A DNA stretch of 64,000 nucleotides. Origin: an uncultured bacterium. GTDB lineage: Bacteria > Babelota > Babeliae > Babelales > Babelaceae. Position 1 is the stretch's first letter, and the number at the start of each line of letters is the position of its first letter. Below are positions 13,459 to 49,290 of this stretch, piece by piece. The position numbers were made by a program, and so were the translations under genes. The stretch lies in NCBI GenBank assembly GCA_903831405.1, contig CAIKXM010000023.1, positions 1,381-65,380 on the forward strand, in the 5' to 3' direction. A model generated the notes under the pieces. That model worked only from the letters and a program-made list of their open reading frames with translations, did not search any database and was not told the DNA's origin.

Positions 13459-13569
13459 AACACTTCCTCATTTTTTTAGAATACAATATACAAAAGCAGT
13501 TCAATTGCATTTTTAGTATAAATACCCGTCAAAAATTAACAATCAAATGTGTTAAGCAGAAAGGTCAAC

Positions 13570-13675
13570 CTCCCGTAACGCTACAAAATACACTGCTTTT
13601 AAAATTGCTCGTGAATAGCACCAATAAAACTCTCTAATACATGAAAGACTAGAGCAATCTGGTTATAGATATATA
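13570..13675 (+). repeat. intergenic element family 1, copy A (5' part diverged)
   Basis: gctacaaaatacactgcttttaaaattgctcg...atgaaagactagagcaatctggttatagatatat aligns with copies C, D and E. It lies upstream of glyQS. Confidence 0.6.
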
Positions 13676-16016: not shown

Positions 16017-16562
16017 ATGAAAAATATTTTCAAAGCCATCGCAATCTGTGGATTACTTATTGCGCCAGCAGCAACCGCTAGCTTCTCATCTAGAATGGCT
16101 ACAGTTACAAATACTATGAAACACTCTGCTACCAATAAAAATTTTAAAATTGGCACATCAATAGCCGCCCTATCAGCAGCCGCTGGTTTTGCTACCTATA
16201 TGCTTACAAAAAACAACAACTATATGGCATTAACAAAAGCTGCTCCAATAATTATTGCAACATCGATTTTTTTAGGTGTATTGGGCGTAGCGATACATAA
16301 AATATCTGCACACACATATAAGCAAATTACCTATTTATGCGGCAAAAAAACAGCCGAGCAAATAGAATTAGACAAAGCTATCGACCAACAAGTAAAAGAA
16401 GCAATGGCTCAAAGTGCTATTAACGCAGCCAATCAACTCTTAAAAGACCAAGAACGCCAAGATGTTTTAGACCAAATAATACAAGAAGTTGAAAATCAAA
16501 ACGGTATAAAAGCAGCGCTAGAATACTATCAAGAAATCAATACAACGCCTATAATAGACTAA
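16017..16562 (+). CDS. hypothetical membrane protein (paralogue of 15343..15855)
   Basis: Same architecture as the preceding ORF. A strong terminator follows it. Confidence 0.6.
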   Translation: MKNIFKAIAICGLLIAPAATASFSSRMATVTNTMKHSATNKNFKIGTSIAALSAAAGFATYMLTKNNNYMALTKAAPIIIATSIFLGVLGVAIHKISAHTYKQITYLCGKKTAEQIELDKAIDQQVKEAMAQSAINAANQLLKDQERQDVLDQIIQEVENQNGIKAALEYYQEINTTPIID

Positions 16563-16636: not shown

Positions 16637-16858
16637 ATGCACACTATCCAAATCAAACAACCAGGCAATGCTCTCTCCTATAAATTCTCATATACAATAA
16701 TACGCAACAGGCATAGCAAGATTCGCTAAGACCTGCACATATATAAAAAAATAGCATTAAAATCTTTTAGCAAAATGTTTACGCTTTAGCATTGTATATA
16801 ACTAAGCAAATCTTGTTATACCGCTAAAACTATTACCTGCAAAAAAAATTACGCTACA

Positions 16859-17423: not shown

Positions 17424-17465
17424 ATAGCTAGCCCCTTTTAAGCTTGCAAAGCTTTTTCAAGTTCT
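17424..17465 (+). repeat. intergenic element family 1, partial copy (5' core only)
   Basis: atagctagccccttttaagcttgcaaagc matches the atagccRgcttcttttagctttgcaaaa core of copies C and E. It lies upstream of the skp-like gene. Confidence 0.4.
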
Positions 17466-24524: not shown

Positions 24525-24619
24525 CTAAAAAAAATAAATACTATTTTGAAAATTAATTATAACACAACAATCTATTTTCGTCAAAAGACTTATACTTCAA
24601 TAAATTTACTGTTTTTAGC

Positions 24620-24730
24620 TAGCTTTATTTAGCTTTGCCCCCTCTTCACCACTTTTCAAAACACTTCCCCAGTAGCACTAAGCAGAACTGTGTAAAAAAA
24701 ATAAAAAACTAAGCACATCTCTCTATAACA
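24620..24730 (+). repeat. intergenic element family 1, copy B (most divergent)
   Basis: ttatttagctttgcc...acttttcaaaacacttcc...actgtgtaaaaaaaataaaaaactaagcacatctctctataaca is collinear with copies C, D and E. Confidence 0.5.
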
Positions 24731-42764: not shown

Positions 42765-43280
42765 GTTATTTGTTTTATTCTTTCAAATCTATTTTTCATT
42801 CTTGTTATTTTGAAACATTAAATACACACGACCTGAAGGCCGTAAAATTCAGTTGCACAAACAAACTATCATTTTTTTTATTTCTATCTTTTGCATAAAA
42901 ACCACATTTTTACTCACCTACACTCTCTTATGCATGCATAGTAATAATTAAAAAATAAACATATCATGCATGCTCATCAGCAAGAGTTATACACACTTTT
43001 ATAGAAAATGTATTTGTGCAGAGATCTACTCTTCAAAAGATACCATGTTTACCAAGAGAGCGCCATGGGAATTCTATATAGAAAAAACCACACAAAAATA
43101 AAAACTCATAACAATATATTTCGGGACACTCTTATATGTTTTTATACATGCACAGTTTTTTTAATATTTGCCAACCTATAGGTACAAGCGTACTATACAA
43201 AGAAAGGTTTTAAAGAATTTTTCAGGCAATGTGGCCACTGTATTGGTATGGTATTTTTATATAGCAAAGGTGTGAAAAAC

Positions 43281-43760
43281 ATGAAAAAAAATATTTTGTT
43301 TGCTTTAGCAGCATTAGTAACTTTTTTTTCTATACAAACAATACATAGTATGCAAGAAGAAGAAAAACATGAAAAGCTTCCGGCATTAACTCGAAACAAA
43401 GATCTTATGCAAAAATTAGCTCATAATGACTTAATTGAGGCAATTCGTAATGATCAAATGACCGAAGTAGAATCGCTCATCGCTTCGGGCGTCGACATAC
43501 AATACAGGGATCATAATGGACATACGGCTCTCCATGAAGCAATAAAACAACTTAATACAAATATAATCATATTATTGTTACGGTATGGTGCCAATACAGA
43601 GATATCCAGCGGCACTGATGAGAGCATACTGTCATATGCAGATAGTATATCAGCAATAGAACGATTACAATCTTTGCAAAGCCCAAGCAGTCCCCAGCGC
43701 ACTATTATTGCACGTAATATTGTTGTACTTCTCTCAAAGTATGGTGCGCGTCGGGATTAG
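43281..43760 (+). CDS. secreted ankyrin-repeat protein
   Basis: ATG 43281 follows AAGGTG. The signal peptide ends ..IQTIHSM|QEEE. ANK repeats include GHTALHEAIKQLNTNIIILLLRYGAN. Confidence 0.8.
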   Translation: MKKNILFALAALVTFFSIQTIHSMQEEEKHEKLPALTRNKDLMQKLAHNDLIEAIRNDQMTEVESLIASGVDIQYRDHNGHTALHEAIKQLNTNIIILLLRYGANTEISSGTDESILSYADSISAIERLQSLQSPSSPQRTIIARNIVVLLSKYGARRD

Positions 43761-43766
43761 CAAACA

Positions 43767-43877
43767 TATAGCCGGCTTCTTTTAGTTTTGCAAAATTTAC
43801 TGTTCTAAAATTGTTTCTGATAAAACTTTTAGATTGTGTGAAAAATAAAAGACTAAGCTAATCTCTCTATAGTATAT
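43767..43877 (+). repeat. intergenic element family 1, copy C
   Basis: atatagccggcttcttttagttttgcaaaatttactgttctaaaattgtttctgataaaacttttagattgtgtgaaaaataaaagactaagctaatctctctatagtatat. Confidence 0.75.
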
Positions 43878-43912: not shown

Positions 43913-44128
43913 ATGCTTTCAAAAAAATGCATACGCTCAATTAGTATCAAGCCCGGCTGCATTGGATGCAGGGCATGCGCTTTTTATGCCCCTGAAATAT
44001 TTATCGTTGAGAAAAAATCAACCGTTAAACCAAACCTCAGCAGCGAAACGTTATGTATACAGCATGATGCTATTATACAAGCAGTACAGCATTGCCCAGT
44101 AAAAGTTATTGTCGTAGAAGAAGTGTAA
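43913..44128 (+). CDS. small single-cluster ferredoxin
   Basis: CIGCRAC ... CP cysteine pattern in 71 aa. Confidence 0.6.
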   Translation: MLSKKCIRSISIKPGCIGCRACAFYAPEIFIVEKKSTVKPNLSSETLCIQHDAIIQAVQHCPVKVIVVEEV

Positions 44129-47655: not shown

Positions 47656-47766
47656 TACAGCAGATTCTTTTAGCTTTGCAAAACGTACTGCTTTTAAAAT
47701 CACTTCACGGCAAAACTAATAGAACAGTGTAAAAAAATGAAAGACTGTTATGAAGCTCGCTATACA
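47656..47766 (+). repeat. intergenic element family 1, copy D
   Basis: acagcagattcttttagctttgcaaaacgtactgcttttaaaatcacttcacggcaaaactaatagaacagtgtaaaaaaatgaaagactgttatgaagctcgctataca. Confidence 0.75.
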
Positions 47767-47795: not shown

Positions 47796-49013
47796 ATGAA
47801 AAATTGCAAACTATTTTCAACACTGTTGGTAAGCTTAGTATGTATACACACTATTGCTCACTCGTACCAGATGCCTGTAAAAATGTATACGATTGCACCG
47901 AATTTTCGAGTAAACATAACACCAAGACAAATGCTTATTGGCGGCTGCGTGATAGCGGGAACTTTTCTTACACTATGGCTCGCCAAAAAGACACATTCAA
48001 CATATAAAGCCTATGCTATTAAAAAGCAGGAAGAAAAACAACGATATGAAATGCGTCTGGATAACTGTTTGCCAACACCTCCACCGCTTCCTCTTGCTGC
48101 CATTGGCCAACAGGCTCAAACGTCTGCGCTCGAAGGTATAACACTCGAACATCTTGAAAAATTTTTCAACACAATTTGCTTCGACGACCAACAAAGTGAG
48201 CAAACTTCTTTTGAGACTATGTGTCAAAAAGCAAACGACCGCATTGTACTATTCGAAAAGCACTGCTTTTTGCATTATGCGCATAAAATATGCATAGATA
48301 ATGGCAACAGACTATCTCAACTACACAATATGTTATGTAAAGAATATCGTGGCACACTGCAAGCATTTGCCTTGCTCAAGGGTATAGAAGGAACAAAAAA
48401 AATTAAGCTCATCGTTACTCCTTTGTATATACCGGCAAATCTTCGAGTAACAACCACACCAGGAATAGACCTACCCCAAGAGTCTACTGCTGACTTTGTA
48501 GTACGACGATTATGTAATAATAAATATATTGCCGCTGCTGATTATGTATATTCTATTATAGAGCGTATTGATACCTTGCAAAAAAGTTATTCAAAAATAG
48601 ATCTACAGCCATCCACTAAGCCTACAGAACAAATAATGCTCGAAGAATTTTCTACTTCTATTTTTGAACAAATAGATATATATAAAAACACTTTACTTGA
48701 TGTACATGCAGCGCTTATACAAAATCCTCTTTACATAAGAGAAATTGAGTTGCGCAATCAGGAGCGTGAATTAGCTGCACGTATAGAAGCAGAGCGCCAA
48801 AGAACTCAAGCCATAGAAAAACAAGCAGAAGCAACCCGACAACATACATACGCTATGACAAAACAAGCAATAGAAAGCACAGCAGCCACTATGCGACATA
48901 CGGAAGCACTTCGACAGCATACTGCAGCACAAGAAGAACACAATCGACTTGAGAGAACACGATTGCACCACACACCACAACAAGGACAACGCCATTTTGT
49001 TCCACAATTCTAA
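47796..49013 (+). CDS. hypothetical membrane-anchored protein with Q/E/R-rich coiled C-terminus (paralogue of 49324..50496)
   Basis: MKNCKLFSTLLVSLVCIHT leader, a TM helix, a conserved Cys-containing core, and a tail RNQERELAARIEAERQRTQAIEKQAEATRQHT. Confidence 0.6.
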   Translation: MKNCKLFSTLLVSLVCIHTIAHSYQMPVKMYTIAPNFRVNITPRQMLIGGCVIAGTFLTLWLAKKTHSTYKAYAIKKQEEKQRYEMRLDNCLPTPPPLPLAAIGQQAQTSALEGITLEHLEKFFNTICFDDQQSEQTSFETMCQKANDRIVLFEKHCFLHYAHKICIDNGNRLSQLHNMLCKEYRGTLQAFALLKGIEGTKKIKLIVTPLYIPANLRVTTTPGIDLPQESTADFVVRRLCNNKYIAAADYVYSIIERIDTLQKSYSKIDLQPSTKPTEQIMLEEFSTSIFEQIDIYKNTLLDVHAALIQNPLYIREIELRNQERELAARIEAERQRTQAIEKQAEATRQHTYAMTKQAIESTAATMRHTEALRQHTAAQEEHNRLERTRLHHTPQQGQRHFVPQF

Positions 49014-49172: not shown

Positions 49173-49290
49173 CTATAGTCTGTTTCGCTATGATCTGCGT
49201 ACTAAGTTACAGGGGACATGTTTGAACAATAAGCTCTATGAGCAGATACATTGTACATAAAACCAAAAGAATCTTGCTATACGTACTATG
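49173..49290 (+). repeat. intergenic element family 2, copy 2
   Basis: ctatagtctgtttcgctatgatctgcgt...aaaagaatcttgctatacgtactatg aligns with 24412..24524. Confidence 0.6.

Follow-up and report, generated by a model that had tools for sequence, protein, structure and literature searches.

Results

Copies of the element in the window

The window analysed here is a stretch of 64,000 nt (C23:1381-65380) from a 974-kb, 50-contig, 38%-GC genome (G000), which in NCBI taxonomy falls in the Babeliaceae, Babeliales, Candidatus Babelota. The feature under study lies between two co-oriented genes, starting 6 nt past the stop of ORF 43248-43760 and ending 42 nt ahead of the start of a ferredoxin-like ORF at 43914. 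It reads TA-TAGCCGGCTTC...AATCTCTCTA-TA, where the hyphens mark the limits of the element. A first-pass annotation of this DNA had described five collinear copies of one intergenic element in a single orientation, and a MAFFT alignment confirmed all five on the plus strand and at nearly the same positions (Table 1). The similarity spans the full ~105-113 nt, which rules out the concern raised at that time that only low-complexity A/T runs might be alike. The nhmmer E-values of the five copies range from 1e-22 to 1e-28, and the core of the element was independently picked up by a repeat finder as families D6 and D8.

Every one of the five copies lies 30-230 nt upstream of a plus-strand ORF, as had been claimed, and four occupy divergent gaps, the fifth being the copy under study. 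The copy at 13560 is upstream of a glycyl-tRNA synthetase ORF (13810), that at 24614 precedes the first nucleotide-transporter ORF (24879), and that at 53984 lies ~230 nt upstream of ORF 54320-54787. A sixth, partial copy had been placed at 17424; its sequence does resemble a solo 5′ terminus, but the match is statistically marginal. The window further contains three sibling elements whose termini are the same. Neither these nor the inverted-repeat ends and TA flanks described below had been noticed before.

Table 1. Repeat elements in the window, with positions counted from its first letter. Family A is the repeat to which the feature under study belongs; all entries are putative MITEs or parts of them.
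Position	Strand	Feature	Remarks
13560-13667	+	Family-A copy, degenerate 5′ terminus	E=1.7e-18; divergent gap
16712-16820	.	Sibling element, same termini (CATAGCAAGATTCGCTAAG ... rc TATAACAAGATTTGCTTAG)	Between ORF 16017-16562 and tmRNA gene
17424-17452	+	Possible solo 5′ terminus (CATAGCTAGCCCCTTTTAAGCTTGCAAAG)	Marginal, E=0.84 genome-wide
24614-24727	+	Family-A copy, GCCCCC variant subfamily	E=3.7e-23; divergent gap
35497-~35604	+	Family-C sibling element (TATAGCAAGTTTGTCTTAGTTTTATACAC...)	Far end decayed, end coordinate approximate
43767-43871	+	Family-A copy (feature studied)	E=2e-28
47656-47764	+	Family-A copy	E=1.3e-27; ends 31 nt before ATG at 47796
49174-49281	-	Family-C sibling element	Ends 42 nt upstream of ATG at 49324
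53984-54090	+	Family-A copy, closest to terminus consensus	E=1e-27

A genome-wide family with inverted-repeat ends

The model-based genome scan that the first-pass annotation had put forward as a check was carried out with an HMM built from the five window copies. This search returned 31 copies genome-wide at E<1e-4, and one iteration gave 30 strong copies at E<1e-12 and 5 weaker ones at E<1e-4 over the 50 contigs, with the best nhmmer E-values reaching 1e-33 over the full length. The element, hereafter family A, is multi-copy, dispersed and non-coding, and its copies are 104-119 nt long. Its consensus is TATAGCyAGCTTCTTTTAGCTTTGCAAAATTCACTGCTTTTAAAATTACTTCTGA....ACTTTTAGAACTGTGTAAAAAATGAAAGACTAAGTGAATCTCGCTATA, and six-frame translation of this consensus gave stops in every frame.

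When the 30 copies were aligned to the model, the boundaries were sharp and the flanks unrelated. The element is bounded by terminal inverted repeats (TATAGCyAGCTTC…GAATCTCGCTATA), and the repeats are imperfect (TAGCyAGCTTC... / ...GAATCTCGCTA): comparing TATAGCCAGCTTC with the reverse complement of the right end, TATAGCGAGATTC, gave matches at 11/13 positions. Directly outside the TAGC.../...GCTA ends stands the dinucleotide TA, on the left in 22/30 copies and on the right also in 22/30. For the target-site duplications whose search had been suggested earlier, these TA flanks are the candidate, and no direct repeat longer than TA was seen at the flanks of the 30 copies.

Family A is heterogeneous. 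Pairwise identity among 23 good copies averages 64% (range 47-92%), with one younger cluster at 83-92% identity, and conservation is lowest in the middle of the element. At least two subfamilies can be told apart, GCCCCC-type variants replacing GCAAAA in 7 copies, and an indel (TAG-ATT vs TAGAACT) also distinguishes copies.

In a 38%-GC genome with A/T-rich intergenic DNA, such copies might reflect chance similarity, or a repeat spread via segmental duplication or recombination and not by transposition, and the failure to recover an empty site (see below) would fit either idea. Against this stand full-length nhmmer matches down to 1e-33, sharp boundaries with the same inverted termini in unrelated flanks, and the finding, given below, that ISs with a transposase gene in related genomes are bounded by these termini too. 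The E-values, the sharp ends and the IS termini refute this explanation in practice, and we consider it the least credible of all those weighed here.

Sibling families in the same genome

At least three more families (B, C, D and variants) occur in the same genome and have the terminus TATAGCnAGmTT in common with family A. Family B elements, such as C5:20425-20672, are ~250 nt long; their 24-nt repeats are perfect, and the interior holds a GC-rich palindrome (CGTTCGCCCTGAGCGAAA...GTCGAACGGGTACGAACG). Since their 30-nt ends are identical in five copies, family B looks younger than family A. Family C elements are ~108 nt long, and two of them lie in the window.

The ORF at 49324, downstream of one family-C element, is a tandem paralogue of the 47796 ORF. 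The two ORFs have ~35 nt of upstream sequence in common, and each is preceded by a putative MITE inserted 31-42 nt from its ATG, of family A at 47796 and of family C at 49324. The end of the element that faces the ORF is of the same type in both cases (GAATCTyGCTATA).

Relationship to IS630-family insertion sequences

The closest IS end found for family A was in G150, a genome of another family of the order, where it is known from ~120-nt contig ends alone; the left 34 nt of family A were identical to this transposase-proximal end at 28/34 positions. The alignment scored 38, compared with a mean of 14.9 in shuffles (sd 2.1, max 22). In-register identity to the 14 ends of seven full-length ISs was 15-24/35, most being at least 18, while for random 35-mers the mean was 9.5, the 99.9th percentile 18 and the maximum 21, and 4/14 IS ends do not exceed 18. 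The right end of family A matches known IS ends over the terminal ~14-19 nt only. On the G150 alignment, TTTGCAAA overlies the last transposase codons within the subterminal inverted repeat, and in the same register the G150 protein reads ...GEMCVA followed by a stop and the element ...SEFCKA.

No full-length IS was detected in G000, either as paired termini 0.7-3 kb apart or as long repeats in a self-BLAST, and no DDE_3/IS630 gene was found there by Pfam model, protein search or tblastn, in an assembly that is 95% complete and fragmented. Given this state of the assembly, it is possible that a cognate IS copy was left unassembled. The sole transposase trace in G000 is a 23-codon C-terminal relic at C20:4512-4580 (tblastn, E=0.004), with 61% identity to the copy in G184, and it adjoins the terminus of a 527-bp sibling element (C20:4110-4636). 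The position of this relic beside a sibling terminus suggests that full elements once lived in the G000 lineage.

As a possible partner we also considered the IS630 copy of the congener G001 (C2:25299-26362), whose transposase is split into two overlapping ORFs of 180 and 187 aa. It has no TATAGC terminus nearby and belongs to a lineage other than the one from which the elements in G000 came, and it was rejected.

Distribution in related genomes

Family A was absent from the whole genome of the congener G001 and from 40 relatives, and a pattern scan with its core gave no match in genome and metagenome contig collections. The generic terminus pattern TATAGCNAGMTTYNYTWAG, on the other hand, matched in 11/261 genomes of the order, with a reversed-pattern control near zero. 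The matches in G020 and G255 are MITEs of those genomes' own (~103 nt and 170-237 nt). Those in G202 and G150 lie at contig ends, and inward of them the 3′ end of a transposase gene adjoins directly. This gene encodes a DDE transposase (...DETG...IIDNASFHKS...LPPYSPDLNPIEHFW...GNLCTP, then a stop), which was assigned to IS630 family NF033545 at 121-130 bits against a 100-bit cut-off and also to DDE_3 (PF13358).

By protein search, the same IS630 transposase clade is present in 22/261 genomes of the order. In closed genomes it occurs as multi-copy, near-identical elements of ~960-1010 bp, and the seven full-length ISs that could be delimited, one in each of seven genomes, all end in (TA)TAGC...GCTA(TA). 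The TA flanks of the full-length ISs in relatives are the same as those of family A.

Further relatives of the transposase, at 31-57% identity, were seen in records labelled Rickettsiales, Holosporales/Holosporaceae, Wolbachia, Spiroplasma ixodetis, Midichloriaceae and Paceibacterota. The clade may thus be one that host-associated bacteria have in common, a distribution that fits gene exchange in shared eukaryotic hosts.

One locus in a relative (L117, G254:C1 ~511216-512923) carries a full-length IS630 at a TATA junction beside the terminus of a ~280-nt palindromic repeat. This repeat has many copies in G254 and in other genomes of its genus, and the right flank of the locus opens with a 35-nt pair of back-to-back termini (TATAGCATAGACC...GGCCTATGCTATA).

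Insertion sites

No filled-versus-empty site pair was found for family A, and no clean nested insertion was present within G000. In the congener G001, coding DNA is 65-75% identical to that of G000, and intergenic DNA does not align. Four empty-site models were drawn from G254 and G255 and compared within their genus. The three with clean junctions gave no match across the junction; for the fourth, matches reached the junction, but the TATATA context there is uninformative. From the flanks of the copies we infer a 2-bp TA duplication, on the understanding that TA followed by TAGC is indistinguishable from a TATA duplication around GC...GC ends.

Gene context and promoter-like features

Genome-wide gene context was taken from a simple longest-ORF call with a cut-off of at least 100 aa, under which 87% of the genome is coding. 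None of the strong copies (0/30) lies within an ORF of at least 100 aa; divergent gaps hold 9 of them, tandem gaps 12 and convergent gaps 5, and the other 4 sit at contig edges. The copy at 43767 was counted as convergent solely because the short ferredoxin-like ORF is below the 100-aa cut-off, and a looser gene call gave the same picture of context. Intergenic DNA amounts to 30.3, 75.3 and 19.1 kb in divergent, tandem and convergent gaps, respectively, from which 6.3, 15.7 and 4.0 of the 26 placed copies would be expected; the observed gap types are thus proportional to intergenic length (chi-square ~2.3, df 2, not significant). The 12 copies in tandem gaps show no orientation bias, 6 being co-oriented with the genes and 6 anti-oriented, and the distance from the right end of the element to the next start codon varies from 0 to >500 nt.

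The element is therefore strictly intergenic, yet it is tied neither to gene starts nor to one orientation. The pattern in which all copies point the same way and lie upstream of plus-strand genes, on which the first-pass annotation laid weight, holds for 5/5 copies in the window and fails genome-wide; it is local to the window. The same annotation had named occurrence in both orientations and inside genes as evidence against an oriented upstream element. Both orientations were indeed found, together with copies in convergent gaps, and copies inside genes never were.

These data bear directly on the proposal that the element is a dispersed regulatory cassette, i.e., a promoter and/or a TTTGCAAA operator for a dimeric DNA-binding protein. 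What speaks for such a cassette is that all five window copies face a downstream plus-strand gene at 30-230 nt, that the motif aTGAAA-N17-TATAnn can be made out at the right end, and that the tandem paralogues 47796 and 49324 have the same type of element end 31-42 nt from the ATG. Correia elements, moreover, are said to supply promoters in Neisseria. In the genome-wide sample, however, 9 placements are divergent and 5 convergent, the tandem ones being split evenly (6 co-oriented and 6 anti-oriented), and distances to the next start codon are widely scattered; neither orientation nor gap type is biased.

The spacing between TTGCAA and TAAAAT is ~13 nt, as stated in the first-pass annotation, which saw in it no plain sigma70 promoter. 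A promoter scan of the region was uninformative, calling 53 sigma-70-like sites against 48.9 in shuffles, and the right end of the element was not called as a sigma-70 site by the consensus scan. The arrangement of a sigma-70 promoter/operator cassette, with 16-18-nt spacing and consistent placement and orientation, was not observed. As for the TTTGCAAA palindrome, once interpreted as the operator of a dimeric protein, it gives way to GCCCCC-type variants in 7 copies and aligns with the end of the IS630 transposase gene and the subterminal repeat; it is better explained as part of a subterminal inverted repeat. We therefore regard a regulatory cassette as improbable, and equally improbable its corollary that the cassette would be kept upstream of a host-interaction regulon comprising a nucleotide transporter, a pilin, a ferredoxin and secreted proteins.

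A weaker form of the idea deserves slightly more credit, though we still doubt it: some transposon-derived copies may have been co-opted, with the conserved right end (AAAAATGAAAGACTAAGTGAATCTCGCTATA) serving as a portable promoter or 5′-UTR. The candidate targets may be the nucleotide transporter, the pilin and the tandem secreted-protein paralogues 47796/49324. Genome-wide statistics give no support for use of the copies as promoters or UTRs. If co-option were true, the spread of MITEs would have reshaped transcription in an endosymbiont whose reduced genome encodes few regulators.

RNA structure

The element had also been suggested to be a 5′-UTR or small-RNA module, and a structured RNA read off the plus strand (a small RNA, a 5′-UTR element or a transcript-stabilising hairpin) would be compatible with the fold of the consensus, which can form one long imperfect hairpin of -22 kcal/mol. 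Transcripts of bacterial MITEs are, besides, often described as long stem-loops (PMC2229807). The stability of the hairpin was not significant (z=-1.8), however, and neither were the folds of three window copies (z-scores of -1.1, +1.4 and -0.1). RNAalifold on 23 copies returned zero consensus pairs. When the consensus hairpin was imposed on the alignment, 77.1% of cells were paired versus 78.0% in shuffles, and the covariation score was 0.124 versus 0.142, with 490/500 shuffles scoring at least as high. The check for compensatory base changes therefore came out negative, and the palindromy is inherited sequence, unmaintained by compensatory change, since covariation is no higher than in shuffles.

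The comparison with Rfam was equally negative: no copy was matched at gathering thresholds or at E<=1, and the only Rfam matches in the window were RNase P, tmRNA and two tRNAs. That copies stand either way round with respect to the adjacent genes also argues against an RNA module. With no consensus fold, covariation, significant z-score or Rfam match, we consider a 5′-UTR or small-RNA module very improbable, more so than a regulatory cassette.

Proposed origin and mechanism

Taken together, these results lead us to conclude, with a probability of roughly 0.88, that the element is a MITE that arose by deletion from an IS of the IS630/Tc1-mariner family and is ~105-113 nt long, non-coding and non-autonomous. 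Of the possibilities listed at the outset, only that of a miniature non-autonomous mobile element is borne out, given ends that are inverted repeats homologous to those of IS630 elements, TA at the flanks and the presence of sibling families. As such it is mobile DNA of a common type, in a host that has received little study, and no dedicated regulatory cassette or RNA gene.

IS630/Tc1-mariner transposases carry a double helix-turn-helix domain at the N-terminus, with which they bind the inverted repeats; they cut the element out through double-strand breaks and integrate it at a TA that becomes duplicated, as demonstrated in vitro for ISY100 (PMC2170065). In the parent IS of family A, the N-terminal helix-turn-helix domain of the transposase would likewise bind the inverted-repeat ends. 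By extension from the IS630 family, transposase supplied in trans would excise the short element, insert it at TA and duplicate the TA, which would yield the observed TA-TAGC...GCTA-TA. Family A may have been spread in this way by an IS of the Babeliales IS630 clade that is now missing or was not assembled. The left ~35 nt, including TTTGCAAA, probably derive from the transposase-proximal IS end, in which the last codons and the stop lie inside the inverted repeat.

The survivors would be confined to intergenic DNA because selection removes insertions in genes from a compact ~1-Mb genome. Since insertion, family A has presumably been decaying. The mean identity of 64% and the missing cognate transposase in the assembly indicate that the family is old and probably immobile, and the copies are most likely fossils.

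Comparison with known elements

The 107-bp RUP (repeat unit of pneumococcus) of Streptococcus pneumoniae is a MITE whose assignment to IS630-Spn1 rests on TA targets and on the similarity of the ends (Oggioni & Claverys 1999, reviewed in PMC2229807). Family A resembles it closely: both are ~107 nt, non-coding, intergenic and multi-copy, with IS630-like inverted-repeat ends and TA at the termini, and in both the transposase link was inferred from end similarity, not from experiment. The two have no sequence similarity, and their hosts are Firmicutes and Dependentiae, respectively. RUP has 108 copies, compared with ~30-35 for family A, and whereas the former show high conservation and are considered mobile to this day, those of family A are old and diverged. 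In contrast to RUP, family A has no cognate IS in its own genome assembly.

The ends of family A, (TA)TAGC...GCTA(TA), are those of IS630-family ISs (IS630, ISY100 and the ~960-1010-bp Babeliales clade), and TA flanks at both ends are as expected from the TA duplication of that family (PMC2170065). Unlike these ISs, family A carries no transposase gene and retains ~35-50 nt at either end. Its full-length relatives come from genomes of the order that belong to different genera and families, and none was found in G000.

The repeats of Correia elements are perfect and 24-26 bp long; some subtypes carry an IHF site, and no transposase is assigned to these elements. For family A, in contrast, the parent IS family is identified here. 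We saw no sequence relationship between the two, and the termini differ beyond TATAG; as the host, moreover, belongs to Babeliales and not Neisseria, membership in Correia/NEMIS was rejected. The likeness is one of general build, a ~107-155-nt inverted-repeat element with TA termini beside genes (PMC2229807).

In annotation, the ~35 intergenic repeats and the sibling families can be labelled IS630-derived MITEs and not candidates for regulatory sites or RNAs, and the TATAGC...GCTATA signature can be used for masking such MITEs in related genomes. An IS630 clade of ~1 kb, together with its MITEs, is documented here as circulating in Dependentiae, a phylum for which the literature searched contained no published description of MITEs; the understanding of how such elements work is unchanged. 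Within the window, an 84-aa ORF with a TTG start listed at 54022-54276 (+) begins inside the copy at 53984-54090 and is probably not a gene.
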